A stretch of DNA of 64,000 bases, from the IMG/VR virus record IMGVR_UViG_2878528002_000001, positions 98,473 through 162,472 of that record. One strand, given 5' to 3'. Position 1 is the stretch's first letter; every line of letters begins with the position of its first letter. The position numbers and the translations under genes were made by a program. The notes under the pieces were generated by a model. It was given only the letters and a program-made list of their open reading frames with translations, was not told where the DNA came from and made no database searches. Shown piece by piece: positions 23,915 through 52,143 of this stretch. Source of the stretch: a virus. Taxonomy: Duplodnaviria > Heunggongvirae > Uroviricota > Caudoviricetes.

Positions 23915-24811
23915 ATGGGATTATTGGGAAGATATAAAAACGGTAACTTTGTGACAACTATTTTGAGTGATGGAACAAAAATTAGAGAAACAGAAGATGA
24001 TGAATTTATTCCTTTATTTGCTGAAAATATGGATATTAAAATTTGCAACTATTGTGATATGGGATGTAAATTTTGTCATGAAGGTAGCACAATAAATGGT
24101 AAATTTGGTAATATTTTAAATGAAAAATTTATTGATAGTTTACATCCATATCAAGAAGTTGCGATTGGAGGTGGAGATGCAACCAGTCATCCTGATTTAA
24201 CCCCGTTCTTACAAAAACTAAAAGAGAAAAAAGTGATTGCAAATATGACTGTTAATCAGATCCATTTTGAAAAGAAACAGGAATTAATCAAAAAGTTAGT
24301 CAACGAGAAATTAATCTATGGTCTTGGCGTTTCGCTAGTAAATCCCACAAAACATTTTATTGAACTTATAAAACAATATCCAAATGCAGTTATTCATGTG
24401 ATTAATGGAGTATTAAAACCATCTGATATAAAAGCATTAGAGAATAATAATTTAAAGATGTTAATTCTTGGGTATAAACATTTGCGTAGAGGTAATGAGT
24501 ATTTTGAAGAAGAACAGAATGATATTGAGACTAAGCAGCAATGGTTATATGAAAATCTTGAAGATATTATTCAGAAATTTCAAGTTGTAAGTTTCGATAA
24601 TCTTGCTATTGAGCAGTTGGATGTAAAAAGATTATTAACTCAGGAAGAATGGGATGAGTTTTATATGGGAGATGACGGATCAACAACTTACTATGTTGAC
24701 ATGGTAGAGCGAAAATTTGCAAGAAGTTCAACAGCTCATATGAATAAAAGATATGATTTACTTGATTCTGTCGATGATATGTTCAATGTGATTAGAATGG
24801 AGAATGATTAA
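23915..24811 (+). CDS. radical SAM domain protein (activase/QueE-like small subfamily)
   Basis: C-x3-C-x2-C in ICNYCDMGCKFCHEG and a Gly-rich SAM motif AIGGGDATSHPDL. RBS AGGAGGATTAAGAATG. Confidence 0.65.
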   Translation: MGLLGRYKNGNFVTTILSDGTKIRETEDDEFIPLFAENMDIKICNYCDMGCKFCHEGSTINGKFGNILNEKFIDSLHPYQEVAIGGGDATSHPDLTPFLQKLKEKKVIANMTVNQIHFEKKQELIKKLVNEKLIYGLGVSLVNPTKHFIELIKQYPNAVIHVINGVLKPSDIKALENNNLKMLILGYKHLRRGNEYFEEEQNDIETKQQWLYENLEDIIQKFQVVSFDNLAIEQLDVKRLLTQEEWDEFYMGDDGSTTYYVDMVERKFARSSTAHMNKRYDLLDSVDDMFNVIRMEND

Positions 24812-28009: not shown

Positions 28010-29119
28010 ATGAAAGACATTAAGATTGTGATTGGAAGTAATTTTGGGGATGAGGGAAAAGGAATGATGACAGATTTCTTTTCCCAGAAATCAAACAGCA
28101 TTGTAGTGTGTTCAAACGGCGGAGCACAACGCGGACATACCGTAGTAACTCCAGATGGAATCAGACATGTCTTTCATCATTTTGGTTCCGGAGCATTTAA
28201 TGGAGCAAGCACGTATTTACCAGAAGATTTTATCTTAAATCCAGTTGTTTTCCGCCAGGAATTACACGAGCTTTACAGAGTAAAGCATCTTCCCGCAACA
28301 TATATTCATAATGATTGTATGGTCACAACTCCATGGGATATGATGGCAAATCAGATTGTTGAAGAAAGTCGTGGTAAGAATAAACACGGAAGTTGTGGCA
28401 TGGGAATTTTTGAAACAATTACACGCTACAAGGCGGGAGTAGTTGATTTAGATTCTTCTATTCGCGATTATTATTTGGAACGGTTTTCGGAAGAAAATAT
28501 ACAGTTATCTGATTCATGGAAAACTCTTATTATGAATGATGATATATTCGATCATTTCTTAGATGATTTGGATTTTATGAACGAATATTGTTCTGTAATT
28601 TCTGATGACTATTTTCTAAATCTATTCGATAACATTGTATTCGAGGCAGGACAGGGTTTACTACTTGATCAGAACAATCTTGAATATTTTCCAAATTTAA
28701 CTCCTTCAAATACAGGCATTAAAAATCCTAAGAAAATTATTGAACGTGTTGAGTGGAATGATGAGATCGAGATAGAAACCTGTTATGTTACAAGAACATA
28801 TATGACGAGACACGGTGTGGGCAAGTTTCCTACTGAATGTAATAAATCGGTAATTAATGGAAAAATGTTTGATAAAACAAATGTACCTAATATTCATCAG
28901 AATTCATTAAGATACGGAACATTAGATTACGAAGAATTATGTAGTAGATGTTCAAACGATGTTAAAGATTTTGGGGATAAAAAATCTATTGCTATCACAC
29001 ATTGCAATGAATTTCCATATGATTCAAATAAAATCTCTGAAATATTTAAAGGATGGGATATTTACTATTCTAATGGAGAAATTCGGGACAGTATCAATAG
29101 AAAGTGTGATAGTTTATGA
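28010..29119 (+). CDS. adenylosuccinate synthetase (PurA) homolog; candidate PurZ-type N6-succino-2-amino-2'-deoxyadenylate synthase
   Basis: Aligns along its length with PurA: IGSNFGDEGKGMMTD (P-loop with Asp13), NGGAQRGHTVV (His41 loop), FEAGQGLLLD (FEGAQG), VGKFPTE. The guanine-specificity (T/S)KLD motif position reads ITHCNE. Confidence 0.7.
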   Translation: MKDIKIVIGSNFGDEGKGMMTDFFSQKSNSIVVCSNGGAQRGHTVVTPDGIRHVFHHFGSGAFNGASTYLPEDFILNPVVFRQELHELYRVKHLPATYIHNDCMVTTPWDMMANQIVEESRGKNKHGSCGMGIFETITRYKAGVVDLDSSIRDYYLERFSEENIQLSDSWKTLIMNDDIFDHFLDDLDFMNEYCSVISDDYFLNLFDNIVFEAGQGLLLDQNNLEYFPNLTPSNTGIKNPKKIIERVEWNDEIEIETCYVTRTYMTRHGVGKFPTECNKSVINGKMFDKTNVPNIHQNSLRYGTLDYEELCSRCSNDVKDFGDKKSIAITHCNEFPYDSNKISEIFKGWDIYYSNGEIRDSINRKCDSL

Positions 29120-31355: not shown

Positions 31356-31529
31356 ATGCCAGTATTTTATTTTTTAGTAATTTGTGGTGCAATCGCAGTA
31401 TGGTTTTTACTTTCTGGGCTTTTTTATCCGATTGGCAAGTTTCTAAAGCACATTGGAAATGATGCAATTGGAGAATTAACTAGAGAAGATAAAAATAAAA
31501 AAGAAAAGAAAACGGAGGATAATGAATGA
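31356..31529 (+). CDS. small membrane protein upstream of the SPFH gene (not in ORF track)
   Basis: MPVFYFLVICGAIAVWFLLSGLFYPIGKF.. has one transmembrane helix. RBS AAAGGTGGTGA. Its stop overlaps the ATG of the SPFH gene (ATGA). Confidence 0.4.
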   Translation: MPVFYFLVICGAIAVWFLLSGLFYPIGKFLKHIGNDAIGELTREDKNKKEKKTEDNE

Positions 31530-32479
31530 AACGAGGGAAATTAGGTGGAATTGCATTAGGAGTATTTATTGCCGTTGTATTAATTTGTTTATGGAAATGT
31601 AGTGTTCGAGTACCAACCGGATATAAGGCAGTAACATATCATCTGAATGGCGGAATTTCAAAAGATACATTAGATGAAGGATGGCACATTGTTCCGCCAA
31701 CAGTAGTGAAAACTTCTTTATATTCTATTGGAATTGAACAGTCATACCTTACTTCCGAAGATAAGGGTGATTCTCCTAAAGACGAAAGTTTTAAGACTCC
31801 TACAGCAGATGGAAAATCCTTACTTGTTAATTTGGAATTTTCTTATATGTTTGATCAAGATAGAATTACAACAGTGTTTAAAAAATTCAAAGGACAGTCA
31901 GGCGAGACTGTAAAAAACACTTTTATTAAACCTAAAATGAAAGCATGGACACAGGAAGTTACTGCAAAATATCCTGTAACAGATGTATTTGGAGATAAAC
32001 GTCAGGAGCTGAATGAAGCACTTGATACATATCTGAAACAGAAGTTTGATCCATATGGAATCATTATTGACACTGTAAACTTCACATCTATTTCTACGGA
32101 TGATGAAACTCAGGCGGCTATTCAGAAGAAAGTCAATGCACAACAGGAACTTGAGCTTGCGAATATCGAAGCAAAAACAGCAAAAGTTCAGGCAGATAAA
32201 GACAAGGAAGTTGCACTGATCACAGCAGAGCAGGACAAAGAAAAAGCAGCTATTCAGGCTGAACAGGCGAAAATTGAGGCAGAAGGTAAAGCTGAAGCTG
32301 TAAAAATCAAGGCACAGGCAGAAGCAGAAGCTAATAAAGAAATTGCAGAATCTCTTACTCCGGAACTGATTGAGAAACAGAAGATTGACAAATGGAATGG
32401 TGAAGTTCCAAAAATTCAGGGTGGAGACGCTTCAACGATTGTAGACACAAGAGATATGACTGAATCTACAGAAGAATAA
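31526..32479 (+). CDS. SPFH/band-7 (prohibitin/HflKC-like) domain membrane protein
   Basis: N-terminal transmembrane helix, then VRVPTGYKAV..EGWHIVPP.., then a long Ala/Glu/Lys coiled coil (QAEQAKIEAEGKAEAVKIKAQAEAEANKEIAE). Confidence 0.7.
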   Translation: MKRGKLGGIALGVFIAVVLICLWKCSVRVPTGYKAVTYHLNGGISKDTLDEGWHIVPPTVVKTSLYSIGIEQSYLTSEDKGDSPKDESFKTPTADGKSLLVNLEFSYMFDQDRITTVFKKFKGQSGETVKNTFIKPKMKAWTQEVTAKYPVTDVFGDKRQELNEALDTYLKQKFDPYGIIIDTVNFTSISTDDETQAAIQKKVNAQQELELANIEAKTAKVQADKDKEVALITAEQDKEKAAIQAEQAKIEAEGKAEAVKIKAQAEAEANKEIAESLTPELIEKQKIDKWNGEVPKIQGGDASTIVDTRDMTESTEE

Positions 32480-32569
32480 TTTTTTATCCATGCACGATGT
32501 CAAAGTCGTGTGTGGGATTCACGGAAAACATAAAATGAAGGTAGCCGTTATTTTTAAAAGGAATAATTA

Positions 32570-33202
32570 ATGGATAATGTAATCGGAAGAAAAGTTCGTG
32601 TTAAGCCCTTAAATGAGATTCCAACATATTTACATTCATATTGTAAAAATTTTGCTGGAGAGATAGGAGTAATAACAGGGGTTAGTATTAGCCCTAATGA
32701 AATAGAATATCGAATTGATTTGGGATGGGAGACAATAAGTACAGTAACAAAATATTTTGATTTTATAGATGAAGAGGAGAATAAAAACATGGCAGCATTA
32801 AAAGGATATAAATCAGTAGCAGTAATTGAATTTGGATCTGGATGTTGTAAGAGTACTTATCATTACGCAATTTATGATGATGGTACAAATTACAAGCCAA
32901 AAGACATTGTATATGTTTCAGGAAATGCGACATGTCCAATTGCGTCTATCAAAGAAATTATTACACCAGAAGAAGCGGATTTAAGATTCAAAAAATCCAT
33001 TACGGCAGAAGTTATCTGTAAAATTGATAAATCCGCATATGAGAATAGAGTTAATAACAGAAAACGAGCCGAAAATATTAAAAAGAAAATGGATAAAATG
33101 ATTAAAGTCATGGATGAAAATAAGAAATACGAAATGTATGCAAATGAAAATCCTGAGTTGTTGAAACTGTTGAATGAATTTAAAGAAGTAAGTGGAATGT
33201 AA
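32570..33202 (+). CDS. hypothetical protein
   Basis: ORF of 210 aa. Confidence 0.45.
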   Translation: MDNVIGRKVRVKPLNEIPTYLHSYCKNFAGEIGVITGVSISPNEIEYRIDLGWETISTVTKYFDFIDEEENKNMAALKGYKSVAVIEFGSGCCKSTYHYAIYDDGTNYKPKDIVYVSGNATCPIASIKEIITPEEADLRFKKSITAEVICKIDKSAYENRVNNRKRAENIKKKMDKMIKVMDENKKYEMYANENPELLKLLNEFKEVSGM

Positions 33203-33373
33203 AATAATGAAATATCACTTTCATTGTTGAGAGGAGATGGATAATATGTTTAAAGTAAAGAGCCGTAGAGGGATTATCTATACCGTTTATGCAGTTGATG
33301 GGAAGTACTTTCTAGTTTACGGAACAACGTGGGAATGGAGAAGCATGTATGATTTTTACCCTATAGAAGAAAG

Positions 33374-33925
33374 ATGAAAAGAAAATTAGATTATATCATA
33401 GAATCAGATGATGATTGCAGGCTGGTTTTTAGATTTTATCCACGTAGTTCATCATGTCATAGTTTCAATGAGGAACCGCCGAAATCCTGGGGAGATGTAT
33501 ATAAAGTATATTATTCATGGGCGATTTTGATACAGTTTTTTGATGAAGAAGGTGCAATCAGATACACTAAAACAGTATATAAGGATGATTTTGATGAGTG
33601 TTCTAGGATAGATGAGATCGCCGCAAGGTGTAAATATCTTGCCAAAGGTAAAGAAAAGATTGAATTAGAACATCAAGGAGACAAATATACAGTTGCCTTG
33701 TTAGATACAAATGTTATTCCTATCGGGATGGGCACAACATGGAAAATCTTAAAAAGAGAATATAATGACATCGATTATGGGTATCACATTTCTTATCTTT
33801 TTGAGGTTTGGGGATACAATGAACAAGGCTATCGTTTTTATATATCTCAAGAAAGAATACAAGATTTTGGTGAATATTTACAGATGTGTTGTGACTATAT
33901 GTTGGAACACGGAGAACCAATTTAG
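33374..33925 (+). CDS. hypothetical protein
   Basis: ORF of 183 aa. Confidence 0.45.
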   Translation: MKRKLDYIIESDDDCRLVFRFYPRSSSCHSFNEEPPKSWGDVYKVYYSWAILIQFFDEEGAIRYTKTVYKDDFDECSRIDEIAARCKYLAKGKEKIELEHQGDKYTVALLDTNVIPIGMGTTWKILKREYNDIDYGYHISYLFEVWGYNEQGYRFYISQERIQDFGEYLQMCCDYMLEHGEPI

Positions 33926-34219
33926 AAAAGGAGAAAATAATATGACAGCAAAAGAAAATCGAGATTTACAGGAATTTACAGCATTTTGCGAAAGAAAAGG
34001 AATTTGTATTAAAGATGAGAACGGACATTATAAAAGCACACATGATGTATTGTCTGAACTTGCGAGACATTGGGAGAATAAACAGGATTAGAGAATATGA
34101 ATTGGAATCCCGTGTTAAACAAATTTATTGAAATTAAAAATACCTATATCAAAAAATGGAGAAGAAAAATTCAAATTACTGGAAGACTTTCATAAATGTG
34201 ATTTGGATGCAAGATAATT

Positions 34220-34510
34220 ATGAAGCGAGATCCTGAAAAACATTATATAAAGAAGAAAATGGATACAATAAGAGTTAAAAAGATTTATCCTAGATTTTTT
34301 TATTATCCGTGTGAGAAGTGTGGGTTTGAGTACAAGAAAGAGAATATGTATCAATGCGATTGGGAAGATAGTCGTCTAATTCTATCATATACTCGTTATG
34401 GGTGTAGTCATTGTTTCGATAGTGAAACACAATTTGTTAAATATTTACAAGATAATGGAATCTTATATAATGAAGAATCTTTAAAAAGAGCATATCGAGG
34501 TTTGGAATGA
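34220..34510 (+). CDS. hypothetical protein with zinc ribbon
   Basis: CEKCGFEY...CSHCFD. Confidence 0.4.
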   Translation: MKRDPEKHYIKKKMDTIRVKKIYPRFFYYPCEKCGFEYKKENMYQCDWEDSRLILSYTRYGCSHCFDSETQFVKYLQDNGILYNEESLKRAYRGLE

Positions 34511-34746
34511 GTATGAAATCAAATTTCAAGGAGATTTATATGATTGACAGTAACGATACTATTCAGTATGAAAATGGTAGGGATTCCGACTATGAAGATG
34601 GATTTGAATATGCGAAATCTATTTATTTGGATATCATAGAAGATATGGCGTATGAGATTGCTACGAACAGATATCCGAAAAAATATACCCATACAGATGA
34701 TGTATTAAAAATAATTGGTGAATTTGTACCTGAAAAATATAGGTAG
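34507..34746 (+). CDS. hypothetical protein
   Basis: ORF of 79 aa with an ATGA overlap. Confidence 0.35.
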   Translation: MSMKSNFKEIYMIDSNDTIQYENGRDSDYEDGFEYAKSIYLDIIEDMAYEIATNRYPKKYTHTDDVLKIIGEFVPEKYR

Positions 34747-34928
34747 TACAAATGACATTCAAAGAACAATCAGAAATTCTTAACAGGCAAAGAATTAAAG
34801 AGTGGACACATTTATGTGAAAGCGCAGGAATCTATTTAAAAAAGTCAAATGACGAATACAAGACAGTTTATGAATTTTTTAAAGAATTATCAATTAAATT
34901 CAAAGGCAAAAAATAAGAAAGGTTAATT

Positions 34929-35252
34929 ATGGCAAATTTAATTATACGAGATAGAGGAACTGGGAAAAGTACTGCATTAGTATATACAAGTTTTGCAACA
35001 AGATATCCGATTCTTGTTCAGTATGAATCAAGAATTCAACATTTAATAACCATTGCAATAGATTTAGGAGTTAATATCCCTCGTCCTATACGAATAGATC
35101 AATATCGAGATAGTAAAAGAAAAGAAGAAAATGTATTAATTGATGAAGGTTATGATCTGATTGGAGCTGCGGTTGATTCATATTTAGGAACTCATGTAGC
35201 TGCTATTACATTTACAGACAAAATAAAAGAGGGTGAAAATCAATGCAGATAA
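34929..35252 (+). CDS. small P-loop NTPase-like protein
   Basis: Walker A IIRDRGTGKSTALVYTS. Confidence 0.4.
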   Translation: MANLIIRDRGTGKSTALVYTSFATRYPILVQYESRIQHLITIAIDLGVNIPRPIRIDQYRDSKRKEENVLIDEGYDLIGAAVDSYLGTHVAAITFTDKIKEGENQCR

Positions 35253-35485
35253 TTCATGCAATTTCAGACAACTTAGAAGCACTATATATTGACGGAGAAT
35301 TAGTAAGTGAAGGCAGTCATATTGATTTTGATGATACTTTGTCGCTTCTTGCTACTCAAGCAAATACAAAAAATGAAAAAATTTATTTTGAATCTGTATC
35401 AGTTGATCAGGATTGGCTAGAAAATTGGAGTTGTTTTCCTAGTCATTTTCATCATATACCAAAAGATATGATTTGTATAAATTAA
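35243..35485 (+). CDS. hypothetical protein
   Basis: ORF of 80 aa. Confidence 0.35.
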   Translation: MQIIHAISDNLEALYIDGELVSEGSHIDFDDTLSLLATQANTKNEKIYFESVSVDQDWLENWSCFPSHFHHIPKDMICIN

Positions 35486-35502
35486 AGGAGAATATATAGA
35501 AA

Positions 35503-35784
35503 ATGATTATTACAGGAATGAATCACTTCCAGAGAGTATGTTTAAAGAAAATGGTTGAATGGTACAACGCAGATGCCGATATTTACCATACGCGGCAAAG
35601 GATTAATCTTGATGATGTATTTGTAGTATGGAGTTGCAAAACATTACAGAATTATAAATGTCTAGTATCCACAACGGTTTCTGGTGATGGCATTTACGCG
35701 GAATATACATATAATGGGGACAAACAAGAACTTTATGAAGATGTATATAAGAAACTTACAAATACTTGCATTACAGAAGAATAG
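35503..35784 (+). CDS. hypothetical protein
   Basis: ORF of 93 aa with an AAGGAGAATATATAGAAAATG RBS. Confidence 0.4.
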   Translation: MIITGMNHFQRVCLKKMVEWYNADADIYHTRQRINLDDVFVVWSCKTLQNYKCLVSTTVSGDGIYAEYTYNGDKQELYEDVYKKLTNTCITEE

Positions 35785-35793
35785 GGGAAAAAA

Positions 35794-36048
35794 ATGAAAC
35801 CAATTGTGTTTTATGATTTTGACCATGTATATCAGAACGAAATCACTATTAAGAAGGATAAATTCGAAAAATTGCTTAAAGATGTTTACAATGCAGGATT
35901 TGAAGATGGAAGAAGAGATTCGCATTTGTATTTTTCGAATCCTCCGAGAAATGGGGAATGGGAAATTACATGTGGCAGCAATGTGAAAAGAGATCCGATA
36001 AACGGCTCATTACATATGGGAACAACAAAAGTCTCTGACAAAATTTAA
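35794..36048 (+). CDS. hypothetical protein
   Basis: ORF of 84 aa. Confidence 0.4.
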   Translation: MKPIVFYDFDHVYQNEITIKKDKFEKLLKDVYNAGFEDGRRDSHLYFSNPPRNGEWEITCGSNVKRDPINGSLHMGTTKVSDKI

Positions 36049-36068
36049 CCACGAAATTTATTTTTCAT

Positions 36069-36095
36069 GGGAATATTAAAAATTCCCTTATATAT
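36069..36095 (+). terminator. hairpin GGGAAT-attaaaa-ATTCCC followed by TTATATATA
   Basis: Perfect 6-bp inverted repeat 20 nt after the stop of 35794..36048, followed by about 200 bp of noncoding DNA. Confidence 0.35.
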
Positions 36096-36289
36096 AATGG
36101 TTTTTTATCTAAGTATCATAGCTTACAAATGGTAAAAATATCAGTATTTTTTCTAATTTTATACGGTAAATCAAGAGTTTTATGATGTGCTGATGAAAAA
36201 TAAAATTAATTGGAAAGGATAAGAGTACCATGGGTAAGCTGCGCAGCACTTAGGTACTTATTATAAAAATAGCAATTATAGATGCGGAT

Positions 36290-37345
36290 ATGATTGGACG
36301 ATCAAAGCATAGATTTCCCAATTTAGTATGTATGAAACTCTCTGGATTTTATAAAGACAAGGGATATGATGTTTTGTTAAAAACTGATTATGAAAACATT
36401 TCAGAATATGATCAAGTGTTTATTTCTAAAGTATTCACAGATACTCTTATAGACGAATCTATTTTAAAATTCCCAAATGTAAAACATGGTGGCACAGGAT
36501 TCTTTTATGATAAGGCTGCATCATTACCAAATGATATAGAACATCATATGCCAGATTATCATTTATATGACGAATGGGTGAAATCACAACTTGATAATGG
36601 CAGCAAGAAAAATGATTTCAAATATTATATGGATTACTCAATAGGATTTATGACACGCGGTTGTTTCCGTAAATGCGAGTTCTGTGTAAATAAAAACTAT
36701 AATAAGGTTTCTCGGCATAGCCCTTTGGAAGAATTTTATGATCCAACGCGAAAAAAGATTTGCCTTTTAGACGATAATGTTTTTGGTTACAAAAATTGGA
36801 AAGATATATTTGAAGAACTGCAAAGCACTGGAAAACCTTTTCAGTTTAAGCAAGGCATGGACGAGAGAATCCTGACAGATGAAAAATGTGAAGTATTATT
36901 TAAGAGCAAATATGACGGCGATTATATTTTTGCTTTTGATAATATTGCGGATTCCGAAATCATAGAAAAGAAATTAAAGATGATTCGACAATATACAGAA
37001 AAGGCTATTAAATTTTATGTTCTGTGTGGATTTGATCGTGACAACAACTGGGATAATAAATTCTGGCAGCAGGATATTTTTGACATGATGGAGAGAATAA
37101 AAATTTTACAACAGTATCATTGTGTTCCATATATTATGCGATTTAATAGATATTTAGAATCTCCATATCAAGGAATCTATAAAACCGTTGCTGCATGGTG
37201 TAATCAACCGAGTTTCTTTAAGAAGAAAAGTTTACGTGAGTTTGGTATTGAAAGTGAAAAATACTCAAAGACACGAAACAAATACATAACAGATTTCGAG
37301 AAGAAATATCCGGAATTTGGAGAATATATGGATATGAAATGGTAA
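36290..37345 (+). CDS. radical SAM domain protein (second)
   Basis: C-x3-C-x2-C in GFMTRGCFRKCEFCVNKNY with an aromatic before the third Cys. The N-terminal about 110 aa (KLSGFYKDKGYDVLL..YDQVFIS) resemble a Rossmann or B12-binding-like lid. Confidence 0.55.
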   Translation: MIGRSKHRFPNLVCMKLSGFYKDKGYDVLLKTDYENISEYDQVFISKVFTDTLIDESILKFPNVKHGGTGFFYDKAASLPNDIEHHMPDYHLYDEWVKSQLDNGSKKNDFKYYMDYSIGFMTRGCFRKCEFCVNKNYNKVSRHSPLEEFYDPTRKKICLLDDNVFGYKNWKDIFEELQSTGKPFQFKQGMDERILTDEKCEVLFKSKYDGDYIFAFDNIADSEIIEKKLKMIRQYTEKAIKFYVLCGFDRDNNWDNKFWQQDIFDMMERIKILQQYHCVPYIMRFNRYLESPYQGIYKTVAAWCNQPSFFKKKSLREFGIESEKYSKTRNKYITDFEKKYPEFGEYMDMKW

Positions 37346-37372
37346 CGAAACATCGTTTTTATAGGAGAAAAT

Positions 37373-37648
37373 ATGATTAAAAAGTGTATAAGAAAAGAAC
37401 ATCTTGATTGCATTCAATTCACAAAAGATAACCAGGATGAAATTTTAAAAATATTGGAACCAAACCTGGATGGAGAACATATTTTTATTAAGGAAGAAAC
37501 TGATAAATATTGTTTAATTGAACATTTGGGCTGGTGTAAAAAGTACTACTATTACAATCATTGGTATGTACTGGGAGATGATAGAGATTATTTATGGAAT
37601 CAATATAGTCCAGAAGATTTCCAAGAAATGTTTAAATTAGTAGAATGA
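37373..37648 (+). CDS. hypothetical protein
   Basis: ORF of 91 aa with an AGGAGAAAATATG RBS. Confidence 0.4.
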   Translation: MIKKCIRKEHLDCIQFTKDNQDEILKILEPNLDGEHIFIKEETDKYCLIEHLGWCKKYYYYNHWYVLGDDRDYLWNQYSPEDFQEMFKLVE

Positions 37649-37885
37649 TGAAAGAAAATGACTGAGAATCAAAAAGAATATAAACGAGCAGTAATTGATG
37701 AAATTCAGAGAAAATATGAAGTAGATTGGATCACGGCAAGTAAAATGCTTGCCTTGACCAATATAGATGCTTCATTAAGAGATTATCCAAAAGAAACAAT
37801 GCATGATGATACTGATTATTGGGTAGAATGGGCACACGAAGCTTGGATATCAAAACTTTATCCATTTTTGTAGAAAGGAACAGAT

Positions 37886-38269
37886 ATGGAGGTATTATGT
37901 AAAAGTGATTATCAAGATTTATATCGCGTAATGGACGGAGTGCTTTTGGTCGTAAATAAGTTCCGATATACCCTTGAAAATGGTAAATATCGTATTTCTA
38001 CTTATAGTAAATCGAGAGATTCCACCGTATATGTTAAAGGTTGTCAGGATCAATTACGTAAATTAGTAAAACCAAGACAAAGTTATATTTGTGGAAGTGT
38101 ATGTCCGGCTGGTACAGTTGTTTATTACGGATATCTCATTGAAAAATGTCCAGTAGAAGAATATGATTTCCAGATTAAAACGACTGGAGATTTATTCAGT
38201 GGCAACGCAGCTCAATTAACAGAAGTTTTAGAAGAAATCAAAGAGAAGATTGGAGAATATAAAAAATGA
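37886..38269 (+). CDS. hypothetical protein
   Basis: ORF of 127 aa. Confidence 0.4.
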   Translation: MEVLCKSDYQDLYRVMDGVLLVVNKFRYTLENGKYRISTYSKSRDSTVYVKGCQDQLRKLVKPRQSYICGSVCPAGTVVYYGYLIEKCPVEEYDFQIKTTGDLFSGNAAQLTEVLEEIKEKIGEYKK

Positions 38270-38814
38270 AAAACGCATGGAAAGTAGTTTTAATTGTATT
38301 CGTAGGTGTTTTAGCCGTGCTTCTTATGGGAGTATTTGGAGTCCAGGGATTCCAAAATAAAGCGATTTCATATGAAGAACAGGTAAACACAGCAGAATCA
38401 GATATCAAAGTTCAAGAAAAAAGAAGAGTAGATTTAGTATACAATCTTGCTGATTGTGTAAAGCAGTATGATAAACATGAATCTGAAACGTTGAAAGCAA
38501 TTGCTGATGGACGAGGCGGATCAAGTGGAGATGTAGAAAATGTAACTACTGCTATTTCCGCAGTAAGTGAAGCATATCCAGAACTGAAATCTAACCAGAA
38601 TTACAAAGAATTAATGAATGAACTGTCTATGACCGAAAATCTAATTGCTGAATACAGAAGCAATTACAATAAGCAAGTTAAATCATACAGAAGATATGTA
38701 CGAGCATTTCCACAGAGATTTTTCTTAAATATGCTCGGATATGAAATTCAGGACTTCAAGTTGCTTGATTATGGTGCAACTGAGGATGCACCACAGAACT
38801 TATTTGGAGAGTAA
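38266..38814 (+). CDS. LemA family membrane protein
   Basis: N-terminal transmembrane helix and YEEQVNTAESDIKVQEKRRVDLVYNLADCVKQYDKHESETLKAIADGRGG, which matches the LemA core. Confidence 0.7.
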   Translation: MKNAWKVVLIVFVGVLAVLLMGVFGVQGFQNKAISYEEQVNTAESDIKVQEKRRVDLVYNLADCVKQYDKHESETLKAIADGRGGSSGDVENVTTAISAVSEAYPELKSNQNYKELMNELSMTENLIAEYRSNYNKQVKSYRRYVRAFPQRFFLNMLGYEIQDFKLLDYGATEDAPQNLFGE

Positions 38815-38816
38815 AT

Positions 38817-39560
38817 ATGAAAAGAGGATGGGATTTCGGAGATTTTGAAATAACAAAGCGTGAAATTCTTGTCAGTGTGTCAATTATTGCAATTATGCTT
38901 TTGATTGGCACGCTGCTATCCGCCAAGATATCAAATTGGCAGATGGACAGAAATGAGAAATATAACAAAGCAGTTAAAATCGAAAACAATACCGACTTGT
39001 TTCAATATGGGATGGATACAAATGTAGGAAATGCTTTTGTGTATGGAGAATTAAAAGCTATAGATACCGTTACATATCCGGAAATTGGTGGAAAATATAT
39101 ATATGTGGAAAAAGTAAAAGAAAAGTATACCAAGCATACACGACGCGTTGCTCATAGAAGTGGTAATCGTACATATTACACAACAGAAACATATTGGACA
39201 TGGGATTATGCAGGATCTGATGATAAGGAATGCAAAGAAATCTCATTTTGTGGAGTTGATTTTCCAATTAAAAAGATCGATTACCCAAGTCCTGACTATA
39301 TTCAAACAATAAAAGAATCTTATTATATTAGATACAAGTATTATGGCACCGCCACAAAATACAAAGGAACTATTTTCACTGTACTGAAAAATAAAACAAT
39401 CGTAGATGGAAGTTCGTTTTATGAAGATTCTAAAATTCCAGAAGTAATTGATAGGTTGGAGTCTGGAATATGGAATGTTGTTTTCTGGATTTTTTGGATT
39501 TTGTTGACAGGATTCGCTGTTTTTGGATTTTACTATTTAGACAATGAATGGTTGGAGTGA
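38817..39560 (+). CDS. membrane protein with N- and C-terminal TM helices (possible LemA partner)
   Basis: ORF of 247 aa that starts 3 nt after the LemA stop. Hydrophobic segments at both ends. Confidence 0.45.
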   Translation: MKRGWDFGDFEITKREILVSVSIIAIMLLIGTLLSAKISNWQMDRNEKYNKAVKIENNTDLFQYGMDTNVGNAFVYGELKAIDTVTYPEIGGKYIYVEKVKEKYTKHTRRVAHRSGNRTYYTTETYWTWDYAGSDDKECKEISFCGVDFPIKKIDYPSPDYIQTIKESYYIRYKYYGTATKYKGTIFTVLKNKTIVDGSSFYEDSKIPEVIDRLESGIWNVVFWIFWILLTGFAVFGFYYLDNEWLE

Positions 39561-39565
39561 ATAAT

Positions 39566-40042
39566 ATGAAAATGTGTGTTACAGGACATCGCCCAAATAA
39601 ATTATATGGATATGATTTGACAGATGATAGATGGATTGCTCTCAAAGAAGATTTTAAGCAAATTTTGATAGAAAATAAATGTGATGAAGCAATTACTGGA
39701 ATGGCACTAGGGGTTGATACTATTTTTGCATATGCGGTTTTAGAGCTGAAAGAAGATGGGCATGATATTAAGCTGCATTGTGCAGTTCCATGTAGGAATT
39801 TTTCTGGTAAGTGGAATATCTATGACAGAGTAAAATATCGTAATATTATTTCTTTAGCTGATACTGTAAAGCTGGTATCTGATGAAGAATATAAACCATA
39901 TCTGATGCAAAAGAGAAATGAATATATGGTTGACCATTCAGATAAAGTCATTGCTGTTTGGGATGGCAGCAAAAGTGGCACGAAAAATTGTATTGACTAT
40001 GCAAAGAAAGTTGGAAAAGACATTATATTTGTTCAGCCATAA
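39566..40042 (+). CDS. YpsA/DUF1273 SLOG-family protein
   Basis: MKMCVTGHRPNKL.., ITGMALGVDTIFAY, KLHCAVPCRNFSGKWN and VIAVWDGSKSGTKNCIDYA align motif by motif with B. subtilis YpsA (ITGYKPFEL / ISGQLGVELWAAE / KVAVITPF..EKNW / LLLLYDPEKEGSPKY). Confidence 0.6.
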   Translation: MKMCVTGHRPNKLYGYDLTDDRWIALKEDFKQILIENKCDEAITGMALGVDTIFAYAVLELKEDGHDIKLHCAVPCRNFSGKWNIYDRVKYRNIISLADTVKLVSDEEYKPYLMQKRNEYMVDHSDKVIAVWDGSKSGTKNCIDYAKKVGKDIIFVQP

Positions 40043-40327
40043 AAATTTTCTTTCTAAAAAATCCCTTCTTAGATGATTGTAAATTATGTCAAATTTTCTA
40101 TTGTAAAATATTGCATTGACAAGTTCTTATCCTATTCTATTCAAAGTCGAAATCGGTGTAATTTCTAATCAATATATAAGCAAAAAATTAAAAAATGAAC
40201 AAAATCTAAGAAACGATGAAACTGGTCTTTCATCGGAATTTTTAAACTATATGTTGTATTTTATTTCCTTTTATATAGCATATATTGTGTATTTTGTATG
40301 AACAACTGAGAGGATTGAATAAGTATT

Positions 40328-41026
40328 ATGATACATAAAAAAATAGTGAATACATATGCCGCTATAGCCTCAGTGTTTCCGGCAGAACTTGAAAAAGACT
40401 TATCTGATAATGAAAGAATATGTCCTACTTGTCATGGACTCGGAATGGTGGTCGAAGATAATATTTTTGGGCTAAAAGATGACAATTCAGAATTTGGCAA
40501 AAAATATAGATTTCCATACAAAAAACAAGCTCTTTCATTTTGTCCAGATTGTGTTAATGGTGTTCAAACACTTTGTCCATATTGTAAAAAACCATATCTA
40601 AAATATGGGACATATTGTGATTGCCCTGGGGCAAAAGAAGAGAAAGAGAGAATTGAAAAAGAGAAATATAACAAATTAATTTCAAATGCAAAAGAAGTAA
40701 ATGTAGATTGCGTAGAAAATATGCTTTATTGCGAAGAAGATGATGTGTTTTATGAAGATATTCATGATTTTTTTGATCGTTGGTATGATGACCTACCCCG
40801 ACCTGAAAGATTATGGGTAACATCGAAAGTAGAATTGTCCATTGATGCAGCAAATGTAATAGAAGATGCATGCTCAGAATTGCATGAAGATGCGGTAGAT
40901 TGTTGCGATTATAAAGAATTGCAAGGAATATTAGACAAATGGTGTAGCGAGCAAAAAGGAACCACCACGTATTATCCGAATTATACAGAATATGTGACTA
41001 TCGACTGGGATAAATATAATGGATGA
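40328..41026 (+). CDS. Cys-rich protein with DnaJ-type CxxCxGxG zinc-finger repeats
   Basis: CPTCHGLGMV, CPDCVNGVQT, CPYCKKPY. An upstream 285-bp noncoding stretch carries a TTGACA promoter-like hexamer. Confidence 0.4.
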   Translation: MIHKKIVNTYAAIASVFPAELEKDLSDNERICPTCHGLGMVVEDNIFGLKDDNSEFGKKYRFPYKKQALSFCPDCVNGVQTLCPYCKKPYLKYGTYCDCPGAKEEKERIEKEKYNKLISNAKEVNVDCVENMLYCEEDDVFYEDIHDFFDRWYDDLPRPERLWVTSKVELSIDAANVIEDACSELHEDAVDCCDYKELQGILDKWCSEQKGTTTYYPNYTEYVTIDWDKYNG

Positions 41027-45693: not shown

Positions 45694-46722
45694 ATGACGA
45701 TTGAAGAAATCAAACAGAAAGTTGCGAGTAAAGAATATAACTTTTTAAGAGAAAATGAACACCTTGGAAAGAATATTATTCTTCTTGGACTTGGTGGAAG
45801 CCATGCATACGGAACGAACACGGAAAGTTCTGATCTCGATGTTCGTGGTATCGCAGTTAATAGAAAAGAAGAAATATTATCAAATATTCGTTTTGAACAG
45901 TTTGTTAATGAAGAAACGGATACGACAATTTATTCGTTTAACAAAATAATTGCGTTGTTGTCAAATTGCAATCCTAATACAATCGAAATCCTTGGATTAA
46001 AGCCGGAACATTACCTTTATATCAATTCTGTAGGAAAAGAATTGCTTAATAATTCACATATGTTTTTATCAAAAAAATGTGTGCAATCATTCGGCGGTTA
46101 TGCAAATAGCCAGTTGCGAAGGCTAGACAATAAAGCAGTTCGTCTTGTAGGACAGGCAGAAAGAGAGAATCATATATTAAATAGTATTAAAAATGCTTTT
46201 GCAACTTTTCCTGATAAATATTTTCCATTTAAAGATGGTGATATTAAACTCTATATAGATAAAGCCGTACAGGAAGATTATGATACCGAAATTTTCATGG
46301 ACGTTAATTTGAAACACTATCCACTAAGAGATTACAAATCTATGTGGTCTGAAATGAATAATATTGTGAAAGATTATTCCAAAATCGGCAAACGGAATAA
46401 GCACGCAATTGAGCATGAAAAACTTGGCAAACATATGATGCATTTGGTTAGATTATTTTACACATGTTTTGATATTCTTGAAAATGAAAGAATTGTTACG
46501 TATAGAAAAGAAGAACATGATTTGCTCATGGATATTCGAAATGGCAAATATCTTGATGATAATCGACAGCCAATACCGGAGTTCTTTGAGTTAGTGGATG
46601 AACTCGAAAAACGATTAGATTATGATAAAGTAAATACATCTCTTCCAGATAAACCAGATTATAAGAGAATTAATGATTTTGCAATTTCCGTCAATGAACG
46701 GATTGTAAAAGGAGAATTATAA
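45694..46722 (+). CDS. Pol-beta-superfamily nucleotidyltransferase
   Basis: IILLGLGGSHAYGTNTESSDLDVRGIAV matches the GS-x(9-13)-DxD minimal nucleotidyltransferase signature. Confidence 0.6.
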   Translation: MTIEEIKQKVASKEYNFLRENEHLGKNIILLGLGGSHAYGTNTESSDLDVRGIAVNRKEEILSNIRFEQFVNEETDTTIYSFNKIIALLSNCNPNTIEILGLKPEHYLYINSVGKELLNNSHMFLSKKCVQSFGGYANSQLRRLDNKAVRLVGQAERENHILNSIKNAFATFPDKYFPFKDGDIKLYIDKAVQEDYDTEIFMDVNLKHYPLRDYKSMWSEMNNIVKDYSKIGKRNKHAIEHEKLGKHMMHLVRLFYTCFDILENERIVTYRKEEHDLLMDIRNGKYLDDNRQPIPEFFELVDELEKRLDYDKVNTSLPDKPDYKRINDFAISVNERIVKGEL

Positions 46723-49053: not shown

Positions 49054-49464
49054 ATGGAGAATATCGAGTTTCATGAAGGAGACTTCGTTCAGAGAAAAGA
49101 TGGTGCAATAGGTTACATATATTACATCTGTCATTGCTCAGATTGTAAAAGTCGAGGTTTCTTTGAACCGACTATTAAATATTTAAACGGTGAGACAGAA
49201 TATATTTCTAATTATGATGTTAAAAATCTTGAAAATTCTTATATTCAAATAGGTACTCATGTATTTGACAAAAATGCAAAAAGTAAGATAAAAAACAATT
49301 GTCCTAAATATTCTCTAATTGGAGAAATAACATATAAGGATATTGATCCGGATATCATTTCAAATGCGTTGATAGACATGAAAAATAATAATTATGTTCC
49401 AGTATTAAAAGATATTTCGTATTCCGGATCGAAATTATATTGGATTCTTAAAAAGGAGAACTAA
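49054..49464 (+). CDS. hypothetical protein
   Basis: ORF of 136 aa. Confidence 0.4.
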   Translation: MENIEFHEGDFVQRKDGAIGYIYYICHCSDCKSRGFFEPTIKYLNGETEYISNYDVKNLENSYIQIGTHVFDKNAKSKIKNNCPKYSLIGEITYKDIDPDIISNALIDMKNNNYVPVLKDISYSGSKLYWILKKEN

Positions 49465-50396
49465 TGAACAAGTTATTTACACATACAGATTTAGATGGCG
49501 TTGGATGCGCTATTATAGCAAAATTGGTTTACGGAGATGAAATAGATATTTCGTTCTGTGATTATAACGAAGTTGATGAAAAAGTTGGAAAATGCCAGCC
49601 TAATAATTATGATCATATCGATATAACAGATATTAGCGTTGGTGAAAAACTTGGTAAATCTATAGATGAAAATTATTCAAATCAAGTTAATTTATATGAT
49701 CATCACGCAACGGCAAAAGATCTTGATAAATATTCGTGGGCAGTCGTTAAGGTAAATGACGAGGGAACAGGATTAATGACATGTGGTACAGAAATTTATT
49801 ATAACCATATTGGTCAGTATATTGATAAAGAATATCGATTGGCTGTCGAGTCATTTGTAAAATATGTAACGTTATGGGATACGTGGAGATGGAAAGAAAA
49901 AAATTCTGGATTAGCAGGAGCCAATGCTAAGAAAATCAATACTTTATTTGGTATTTATGGAAGAGAGAAATTTATCAAATGGGCGATTGATCATATAAAA
50001 TCTGGAGTCTTCCCCAATTTTACAGTAGCAGATTTGAGCATTTTAGAAGCTAAACAGAATGAAATTTTTCGATATATTGATGAAAAAGACAATCAATATA
50101 TTAAGAGAAAAGATTTTGCAGGAAGAGTATTTGGTGTGGTGTTTACAGAAAATTACATTAGTGAACTTGGAAATGCCTTATGTGAACGACATCCAGAATT
50201 AGCTTATGCTGTAATTATTGATATTGGAAATGGAAATGTTTCTTATAGAACTATTCGCGATGATATTAATTTAGGAAAAGATATTGCCTCATTATGTGAT
50301 GGCGGTGGACATGCTAAAGCAGCTGGTTCAGAATTTGGAAAAATCATTGCTTATGATGTAATTGATAAGCTTTTTAAAGGCAGGATTATATCATAA
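49464..50396 (+). CDS. DHH-DHHA1 family phosphoesterase (NrnA/oligoribonuclease-like)
   Basis: Motif I HTDLDGVGCAI, motif III YDHHAT (DHH) and DHHA1 DGGGHAKAAG. Confidence 0.75.
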   Translation: MNKLFTHTDLDGVGCAIIAKLVYGDEIDISFCDYNEVDEKVGKCQPNNYDHIDITDISVGEKLGKSIDENYSNQVNLYDHHATAKDLDKYSWAVVKVNDEGTGLMTCGTEIYYNHIGQYIDKEYRLAVESFVKYVTLWDTWRWKEKNSGLAGANAKKINTLFGIYGREKFIKWAIDHIKSGVFPNFTVADLSILEAKQNEIFRYIDEKDNQYIKRKDFAGRVFGVVFTENYISELGNALCERHPELAYAVIIDIGNGNVSYRTIRDDINLGKDIASLCDGGGHAKAAGSEFGKIIAYDVIDKLFKGRIIS

Positions 50397-50903: not shown

Positions 50904-52143
50904 AAAAAAGAGAATTATATATAAGAAGGTGGTGATTATGAATGTTGGTTGCATATAAATATAGATTATATCCAAACAAAGAACAGCAAATATATTTTGC
51001 AAAATGTTTTGGATGTGTACGATTCATTTATAATCGTATGCTTTCAGATAAAATTGAACATTATAAAGAAACAAAACAGAGACTTAACAATACACCAGCT
51101 CAATATAAGAAAGAATTTCCTTGGTTGAAAGAAGTTGATTCACTTGCACTAGCAAACGCACAGATGAATTTACAGACAGCTTATAATAATTTTTTCAAAA
51201 GACCAGAAGTAGGATTTCCTAAATTCAAGAGCAAGAAAAGTCATAAATATTCTTATACTACTAATAATCAAGGTGGAAACATTTATGTTTCTGACAGATA
51301 CATTAAATTACCTAAGATTGGGTTGATAAGAATAAAGAAGCATAGAGATTTTGAAGGGTTAATAAAATCGGTGGCAGTCTCTCAGAAACCATCTGGAAAA
51401 TATTATGTTTCAGTTTTGGTTGAATGTGATGAAATTGAAAAACTTCCGAAATCGGAATCTGAAATTGGAATAGATTTAGGTCTAAAAGACTTTGCTATTC
51501 TGTCGAATGAAGAAAAAATAGCTAATCCGAAATACTTATCCAAATCTGAACTCAAACTTAGGAAATTGCAAAAAGATTTATCCAGATGTCAAAAAGGTAG
51601 CAAGAATAGAAATAAGTGCAGAATAAAAGTTGCGAAGCAACATGAGAAAATTGTAAATCAAAGAAAAGATTTTCTAAACAACCTATCCAAAAGACTTATT
51701 TGTGAAAACCAAACAATATGTCTTGAGGACTTGAAAATCAAGGAAATGATGAGTAATAAACAAATATCAAAATCGGTTGCAGATGTATCATGGAGTGAAT
51801 TTGTGAGACAGCTCGAATATAAAGCACAATGGTATGAACGAGAAATTATAGAAATAAGCACATGGTTTCCGTCAAGTCAGACGTGTTCTTGTTGCGGGTA
51901 TATCAATAAAAGGATCAAAGACACAAATATTCGAGAATGGATATGTCCTAATTGCAATGTACACCACGATAGAGATATCAACGCAGCAATAAATATCCTC
52001 AATGAAGGATTGAGAATAAGAACCGCAGGAACTGTGGAGATAGCCTAAGTAAACTTGTCTCGGTAGAGATATTGACTAGGAAGCTCAGACCTCTAAGCAA
52101 AGCGTAAGGTCGTGAGTAGTTCACACAATTAGAACGAGAAGAT
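50904..52143 (+). mobile_element. IS200/IS605-family tnpB-only element (IS1341-like); ends approximate
   Basis: A single TnpB ORF with about 95 nt of structured noncoding sequence between its stop and the next gene. No tnpA is present and the exact left and right ends were not determined. Confidence 0.45.
50942..52048 (+). CDS. tnpB: TnpB (IS605 OrfB-family RNA-guided nuclease/transposase accessory protein)
   Basis: N-terminus MLVAYKYRLYPNKEQ, central RuvC-like region, C-terminal zinc finger CSCCGYINKR..WICPNCNVHHDRDINAAINI. Confidence 0.85.
   Translation: MLVAYKYRLYPNKEQQIYFAKCFGCVRFIYNRMLSDKIEHYKETKQRLNNTPAQYKKEFPWLKEVDSLALANAQMNLQTAYNNFFKRPEVGFPKFKSKKSHKYSYTTNNQGGNIYVSDRYIKLPKIGLIRIKKHRDFEGLIKSVAVSQKPSGKYYVSVLVECDEIEKLPKSESEIGIDLGLKDFAILSNEEKIANPKYLSKSELKLRKLQKDLSRCQKGSKNRNKCRIKVAKQHEKIVNQRKDFLNNLSKRLICENQTICLEDLKIKEMMSNKQISKSVADVSWSEFVRQLEYKAQWYEREIIEISTWFPSSQTCSCCGYINKRIKDTNIREWICPNCNVHHDRDINAAINILNEGLRIRTAGTVEIA

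Follow-up and report, generated by a model that had tools for sequence, protein, structure and literature searches.

What raises a question at this locus is whether three gene modules found together in a phage act together. The locus lies in a 64,000-nucleotide stretch of a Caudoviricetes genome (positions 98,473–162,472 of IMG/VR record IMGVR_UViG_2878528002_000001), hereafter the window. Within an 8.7-kb interval, the window encodes a 57-residue single-pass membrane protein followed by an SPFH protein, a LemA family protein followed by a partner protein with two transmembrane segments, and a YpsA-type SLOG protein. The original prediction treated the three modules as one membrane-stress gene set carried by the phage. 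The comparison with related loci points in another direction. The modules are probably three independently inherited accessory modules and not one coordinated set, because in related loci they almost never occur together.

The family assignments that underlie the prediction were supported by profile searches. The SPFH protein matches Pfam Band_7 (PF01145) over residues 28–220 (E 6.8e-23; 82.1 bits, cutoff 23.6) and phrog_200 (E 4e-61), and its best PDB sequence matches are prohibitin 1/2. The LemA protein matches PF04011 (E 8.7e-30; 104 bits, cutoff 26.2) and the Thermotoga maritima LemA structure 2ETD (E 2e-22) and is MamQ-like by NCBIfam. The SLOG protein matches PF06908 (E 3.8e-24; 86 bits, cutoff 27.7) and Bacillus subtilis YpsA (2NX2; E 2.7e-8). 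In the latter alignment GVD is aligned to GVE, and the GxD motif of the nucleotide pocket is kept.

The independence of the modules was examined from both ends of the interval. The LemA pair was sampled in 80 IMG/VR loci, 42 GTDB loci (largely Lachnospiraceae and other Clostridia), three GenBank phages and same-species metagenome loci. SPFH and YpsA homologues are absent within ±10 kb of the pair in ∼120 related loci outside the window's lineage, apart from YpsA in loci L023 and L073. Homologues of both are also absent from end to end in four further genomes or scaffolds, Lysinibacillus phage LC76P1 (165 kb), MT835477 (85 kb), MT835973 (34 kb) and Lactococcus phage PLg-TB25 (38 kb), where the SPFH search included six diverse phage SPFH queries. 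Conversely, around the SPFH genes of 80 IMG/VR loci, which encode proteins 85–86% identical to that of the window and mostly belong to a different group of ∼80-kb phages, neither LemA nor the partner nor YpsA occurs within 10 kb, save in one locus of the window's species. SPFH accompanies the LemA pair in two of the six phage lineages examined, which is compatible with both families being common in large Firmicutes phages. Within the block that was described earlier, YpsA shares a coupled gene string with the LemA pair, and ∼15 genes separate the SPFH module from the LemA module. These intervening genes encode unrelated soluble proteins.

The first membrane module is a tightly linked gene pair. 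The stop codon of the 57-residue gene and the start codon of the SPFH gene overlap in an ATGA sequence, indicative of translational coupling, and the small protein contains a single N-terminal hydrophobic helix (mean Kyte–Doolittle hydropathy of 2.38 across 19 residues), both as originally described. The 57-residue protein has no match in Pfam, PHROG, NCBIfam or PADLOC. The SPFH protein contains one hydrophobic segment (residues 7–25), and its Ala/Glu/Lys-rich region (residues 205–265) aligns with the coiled coil of prohibitin. A small transmembrane gene is located directly upstream of SPFH in 86 of 86 related loci. In all 80 IMG/VR loci among them, it encodes a homologue of the 57-residue protein (59–63% identity), and the 4-nucleotide overlap is kept in 79. 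More widely, SPFH homologues are found in 403 GenBank phage records (188 from Staphylococcus, 54 from Bacillus and 53 from Enterococcus phages). Small transmembrane open reading frames (ORFs) that are equivalent in architecture to the 57-residue protein but non-homologous to it lie immediately upstream of SPFH in phage K (gp196/MbpV, 102 residues) and in the Bacillus phages Jabberwock (44 residues) and BMBtp1 (46 residues); in Enterococcus phage EF24C, a small transmembrane gene lies immediately downstream. Phage K MbpV has been noted as holin-like, and MbpS has been proposed to organise membrane microdomains (PMC7150955). A search of the literature turned up no functional work on LemA or SPFH from phages.

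The conserved pairing thus bears out one half of the suggestion that this arrangement resembles NfeD/YqiJ–SPFH operons; the other half, the likeness to NfeD itself, does not hold. An NfeD identity for the 57-residue protein was rejected, as the protein does not match the NfeD OB-fold (PF01957) and its ∼30 residues outside the membrane helix are too few for one. By the positive-inside rule, moreover, its tail is predicted to be cytoplasmic and the SPFH domain to lie on the opposite, outer side, although this topology call is weak.

The second membrane module consists of LemA and a partner of the phrog_3886 family whose gene starts 2 nucleotides past the LemA stop codon. LemA is located 5′ of the partner in 126 of 126 loci that retain upstream sequence (77 IMG/VR, 41 GTDB, 3 GenBank and 5 same-species loci), and this order is kept down to a partner identity of 29–30%. 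The gap between the two genes is mostly 0–14 nucleotides, and larger negative values are an artefact of automatic start-codon choice. Gaps or inserts of 99–924 nucleotides were found in four loci, with an insertion of ∼0.9 kb in the IMG/VR loci L034 and L035, and phage LC76P1 carries a 76-residue transmembrane ORF between LemA and the partner. The sequence identities of LemA and the partner co-vary across 121 loci (Pearson r = 0.95). LemA and phrog_3886 are an obligate, co-evolving pair.

The partner belongs to a large family (>3,500 database homologues) in which no Pfam domain is recorded among the members listed. No Pfam match was obtained across six family members even at E ≤ 5, and a profile search of the PDB gave no match. 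By hhalign, two more members of the family are encoded right behind LemA, one in Enterococcus phage ZJGS3 (99.9% probability, E 9e-34) and the other in Lactococcus phage PLg-TB25 (99% probability, E 2e-18). The ZJGS3 partner is annotated as 'transmembrane protein 43', a putative TMEM43 identity given to the partner in some Enterococcus phage records. An AlphaFold2 model of the partner, built from a 55-sequence alignment (predicted local distance difference test score of 87), comprises a transmembrane helix (residues 14–50), a β-rich ectodomain (residues 53–203) and a second transmembrane helix (residues 218–240). A Foldseek search of the PDB with this model returned nothing below E 0.01, and β-pore toxins were rejected as fold relatives (weak matches with TM-scores below 0.3). 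In BFVD, the model matches the homologue from the Lactococcus phage as well as similarly arranged giant-virus ORFans (E 5e-10 to 1e-8), none of which is annotated. The giant-virus proteins (Satyrvirus, Tupanvirus and Klosneuvirus; 211–250 residues) are the next-best matches, with TM-scores of ∼0.4–0.46 that reflect either homology or a mere sharing of the two-helix and β-domain layout.

LemA followed by a protein with two transmembrane segments had been described as the usual LemA-partner arrangement. The adjacency is real and conserved, but the usual cellular partner is a different protein. In all five cellular genomes sampled (Thermotoga, Carboxydocella, Neobacillus, Sporosarcina and Thermincola), a TPM_phosphatase (PF04536) gene comes directly after LemA and either overlaps it or starts within 15 nucleotides of it. 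The encoded TPM proteins (238–264 residues) begin with a hydrophobic segment, continue with an ectodomain and a second transmembrane segment and end in a Gly-rich tail. Homology of the phage partner to TPM was rejected, with an hhalign probability of 0.4% against Thermotoga TPM and an all-β ectodomain in the AlphaFold2 model. The phage pair is best described as a LemA–TPM arrangement with a non-homologous partner, because the partner has the same size and layout without TPM similarity. LemA is predicted to have its soluble domain outside the cytoplasm, and magnetosome membrane formation requires the LemA-like protein MamQ (PMC3905215).

The SLOG gene occupies a variable slot beside the LemA pair. 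The flanks of the pair are highly variable, with more than 40 unrelated downstream families. Outside the window's own lineage, YpsA comes right after the partner in locus L023 alone (34% identity), and it is 4 kb away in L073. A fixed LemA–partner–YpsA operon was rejected, as the three-gene order occurs in only 6 of 124 loci with two YpsA lineages. The largest neighbour family of the pair consists of HAD-like proteins whose Tad3 domain matches Pfam PF25185 (Type I Thoeris inhibitor) at E 1e-34 to 7e-29. Their genes lie immediately beside the LemA cassette in 26 related phage or prophage loci, downstream of it in 24 and upstream in 2; L184:10854–11921, L069:2178–3467 and L177:8385–9419 are three of them. 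RtcB, HAD_SAK_2, DUF4406 and nucleoside-deoxyribosyltransferase-like proteins also occupy the slot. Tad3 blocks the TIR protein ThsB through direct binding (PMC13402655, PMC13243611). Viral SLOG domains, which 31% of jumbo phages encode, mostly belong to the YpsA clade, and a role in sensing or degrading immune signals derived from ADP-ribose has been proposed for them (PMC9503650). Homologues of the window's SLOG protein are present in 269 GenBank phage records.

A role of this protein in division or membrane stress, as the original prediction had it, is less likely. Overexpression of B. subtilis YpsA stops FtsZ assembly; the division-inhibiting YpsA proteins form a gpsB-linked clade, and YoqJ, the homologue in prophage SPbeta, lacks the residues needed (PMC6459960). 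No gpsB-like gene adjoins YpsA in the window, where the gene of the LemA partner precedes it and one for a Cys-rich 232-residue protein follows. The genomic context favours a counter-defence role for the SLOG protein because Tad3 holds the slot in relatives, viral YpsA-clade SLOGs have been proposed to act on immune signals and gpsB synteny is missing. The translation start of the SLOG gene is more likely the ATG at 39566 than the start at 39548, because a GGAG sequence lies 7 nucleotides upstream of the former and public gene calls give 158 residues. The Cys-rich neighbour contains CxxCxGxG-like motifs and has no Pfam or PHROG match; at least eight otherwise different loci (L023, L028, L041, L044, L048, L082, L083 and L179) carry a homologue (43–54% identity) within 0.3–3 kb of the LemA pair.

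From these features a mechanism can be proposed for each module. By analogy with prohibitin and HflK/C, the SPFH protein would most likely form an oligomeric ring on the host cytoplasmic membrane and fence off a membrane patch, inside which the co-translated 57-residue protein may be its client or regulator. LemA and its partner would expose their ectodomains on the outer membrane face and work on the envelope during infection as one complex. This pair is the phage counterpart of the cellular LemA–TPM operon, with TPM replaced by a protein that is not homologous to it but matches it in length and topology. The SLOG protein would most likely bind or process a nucleotide derived from NAD or ADP-ribose and thereby blunt host immune signalling.

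Several points weigh against this account of separate modules and their roles. In the Herelleviridae-type Enterococcus phage ZJGS3 (L222, 979–10363), the LemA pair and an SPFH gene annotated as 'lipoprotein' share a strand and are ∼6.4 kb apart. In Thermincola, LemA, TPM, NfeD and FloA are contiguous. Both arrangements hint at a real link between SPFH and LemA. Transmembrane segments are predicted in only 4 of the 34 genes between 29 and 43 kb of the window, namely those for the 57-residue protein, SPFH, LemA and the partner. The adjacency of YpsA and the partner recurs in L023 with a very divergent YpsA, which may point to a functional tie and not to a shared slot. For SPFH (+3 versus +2) and for the partner, the topology predicted from charge is weak, and ring formation, sidedness, the envelope function and the counter-defence role are steps that we infer. 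PADLOC gave no credible defence or anti-defence assignment in the interval and returned only weak matches (ShosA, 7.5e-5 over 40 residues; PDC-S35, 8.7e-4), of which the ShosA-like one is the only defence-type match of the SLOG protein. Two side observations concern the loci just named. In ZJGS3, a small 67-residue transmembrane gene comes after SPFH, with an HNH endonuclease gene between them. On the Thermincola contig (L227, 2501–5573), the four genes, FloA being the SPFH protein, are consecutive on the same strand and represent the only direct adjacency of the two membrane modules seen.

The exclusive set of four membrane proteins, the distance of ∼6–7 kb between SPFH and the LemA pair in a second lineage (ZJGS3), the Thermincola gene order and the ability of overexpressed YpsA to prevent FtsZ assembly (PMC6459960) would all fit a coordinated phage toolkit for manipulating the membrane microdomains and the division of the host or for excluding superinfecting phages. 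Such a toolkit is nevertheless unlikely. The modules are inherited independently, and four of the six LemA-pair lineages, searched end to end, are devoid of SPFH and YpsA. The ∼15 genes between the modules are unrelated, and relatives gain or lose RNA ligase, methylase and Thg1 genes there. The YpsA clade that acts on division is defined by a gpsB synteny that the window does not share, and YoqJ is without the required residues. A narrower proposal, that LemA and its partner mediate superinfection exclusion or receptor masking, with outward ectodomains that block DNA entry by competing phages, draws on the predicted extracytoplasmic location of both soluble domains, on the frequency of the pair in prophage-like regions of Clostridia genomes and on its placement among accessory and counter-defence genes. 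It too is improbable, since the pair is co-oriented with replication and early lytic genes in the window and in a Hungatella hathewayi prophage-like region, which also codes for a phage-type DNA polymerase/primase, an annealing protein and a helicase. In neither place is the pair a separately transcribed lysogeny moron, and it is related to a housekeeping cellular operon.

A reading of the LemA pair, and possibly of the 57-residue protein and SPFH, as membrane-integrity devices against membrane-disrupting abortive-infection effectors would extend counter-defence to the membrane. It would explain why the pair shares its slot with Tad3, SLOG, DrHyd-like and RNA-repair genes and why the phage's own ectodomain protein replaces the cellular TPM partner, and it is regarded as a rather remote prospect, slightly more doubtful than exclusion. 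The most doubtful proposal is a lysis-clock module in which the 57-residue protein is a holin- or antiholin-like effector timed by an SPFH ring. The tight translational coupling of the two genes would suit such a clock, and MbpV of phage K, which has the same architecture and has been noted as holin-like, is encoded with MbpS between the endolysin gene lysK and tgl. The resemblance to MbpV is architectural only, with no sequence match. In the window, PurZ and small early-type genes flank the pair, and the 29–43-kb region contains no endolysin gene; in Bacillus and Enterococcus phages the corresponding pairs adjoin DNA polymerase or ribonucleotide reductase genes. Independent inheritance of the three modules is the preferred reading.

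The source of the window is a large, ∼200-kb, PurZ-encoding phage of gut Clostridia with Lachnospiraceae-type hosts, because identical copies of the interval's proteins recur in human-gut metagenomes, on hundreds of contigs that reach 198–201 kb in the most complete cases, and one record with an identical protein is annotated as Blautia obeum. Homologues of the partner are also found in prophage-like regions of Hungatella, Enterocloster, Lachnotalea and other Clostridia. A megablast search of the 8.7-kb interval against GenBank phages gave no match. All coding sequences of the window are on the plus strand, and the GC content is ∼32%. The PurZ gene suggests that the phage DNA may carry 2-aminoadenine in place of adenine (a Z-genome). 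Many related loci have a PurZ homologue (∼70% identity) at a distance of 3–5 kb from the LemA pair. The window also encodes a primase-helicase, a family-A-like DNA polymerase (1101 residues), methyltransferases and a TnpB-like transposase. The coordinates of the features discussed here are listed in Table 1.

Table 1. Features of the window, in window coordinates
Feature	Position	Strand	Description
Radical-SAM/Fe-S-like protein	23915-24811	+	
PurZ-type adenylosuccinate synthetase	28010-29119	+	phrog_1211, E 1.7e-68; Pfam Adenylsucc_synt in public gene calls
57-residue bitopic membrane protein	31356-31529	+	N-terminal transmembrane helix, Lys/Glu-rich C-terminal tail; MbpV-like architecture
Prohibitin-like SPFH/Band-7 protein	31526-32479	+	N-terminal transmembrane anchor, SPFH domain, Ala/Glu/Lys-rich coiled-coil tail; phrog_200
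Radical-SAM/Fe-S-like protein	36290-37345	+	
127-residue soluble protein	37886-38269	+	phrog_21582; ATGA-coupled to LemA
LemA family protein	38266-38814	+	N-terminal transmembrane segment (residues 7-26), helical-bundle domain predicted outside the membrane; phrog_1383
247-residue LemA partner	38817-39560	+	phrog_3886, E 4.6e-84; transmembrane helix, ∼150-residue β-rich ectodomain, C-terminal transmembrane helix
YpsA-clade SLOG protein	39566-40042	+	158 residues, soluble; alternative start at 39548 gives 164 residues; phrog_289
Intergenic gap	40043-40327		285 nucleotides; hairpin at 40214-40235 inside; closes the coupled gene string 37886-40042
Cys-rich 232-residue protein	40328-41026	+	
Nucleotidyltransferase	45694-46722	+	phrog_388
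DHH phosphoesterase	49464-50396	+	phrog_4771
TnpB-like transposase	50942-52048	+	IS200/IS605-type; phrog_506, E 1e-136

The interval lies within a run of small genes, with PurZ on one side and replication genes on the other, and belongs to the plastic early/accessory region of the phage genome. On same-species contigs (L006, L007 and L008), gene content between SPFH and LemA varies through insertion or exchange of a T4-type RNA ligase with a KTI12/AAA kinase, of DNA methylases, of an Asn-synthase-like gene and of Thg1. The window of this PurZ phage encodes two radical-SAM/Fe-S-like proteins (phrog_16999 and phrog_9298), and the radical-SAM-like gene inside the interval is missing from some strains. 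The genes from that of the 127-residue soluble protein to that of the SLOG protein form one tightly packed string that ends at the intergenic gap. Homologues of the 127-residue protein adjoin or lie near the LemA pair in L015, L017, L029, L031 and L070 and are recurrent neighbours, not obligate ones. A promoter scan gave site counts no higher than the shuffled expectation. Beyond the interval, the nucleotidyltransferase and the DHH phosphoesterase, which belong to the same accessory region, may likewise serve in nucleotide signalling or repair, and an element homologous to the TnpB-like gene is also found in MT835477 (L001, 4750–5940).

The four families are already represented in PHROGs (phrog_200, phrog_1383, phrog_3886 and phrog_289), and current views are not overturned by these results. 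The most useful new points are the strict LemA–phrog_3886 pairing as a TPM-replacing variant and the adjacent slot shared by Tad3 and SLOG proteins. Two obligate two-gene membrane cassettes are cleanly defined and can be tested as units. The phage LemA partner, as a non-homologous stand-in for TPM, offers a handle on LemA function, and the context argument places the YpsA-type SLOG protein with counter-defence genes instead of with membrane or division functions.

Among known systems, MbpV/MbpS of Staphylococcus Kayvirus phages (gp196/gp197 in phage K), with phrog_200 as the SPFH 'lipoprotein' family, is comparable to the first module, as a small protein with an N-terminal transmembrane helix and a charged tail is encoded upstream of, and overlapping, an anchored-SPFH gene. 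MbpS is homologous to the SPFH protein of the window (26.5% identity, E 3e-25), whereas MbpV (102 residues) has no detectable sequence similarity to the 57-residue protein. The phage K pair is located in the lysis region, in contrast to the early accessory region that holds the pair of the window. Cellular NfeD–SPFH operons (NfeD–FloA and YqiJ–YqiK) share the tight linkage of a membrane-protein gene followed by an SPFH gene, but the OB-fold of NfeD is missing here, and the SPFH protein is prohibitin/HflK-like and not FloA/FloT-like.

The cellular LemA–TPM_phosphatase (PF04011–PF04536) operon resembles the second module in that LemA comes first and is tightly coupled to a partner of the same size and transmembrane layout. 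The phage partner differs from TPM in its β-rich ectodomain, which has no TPM similarity, and in the absence of a Gly-rich C-terminal tail. The SLOG protein is similar to other viral YpsA-clade SLOGs (phrog_289; DUF1273; SPbeta YoqJ; Iyer et al. 2022) in being a stand-alone protein of ∼160 residues with a GxD/E motif in a large phage. It differs from them in that its gene adjoins the LemA pair and is neither fused to nor beside Macro, NADAR or Nudix genes. Tad3 anti-Thoeris proteins are not homologous to the YpsA-type SLOG protein, and Tad3 binds ThsB, whereas the SLOG protein would be expected to bind a nucleotide signal. The two nevertheless occupy the same slot flanking the LemA pair in relatives, and both relate to the TIR/SLOG signalling axis of Thoeris.

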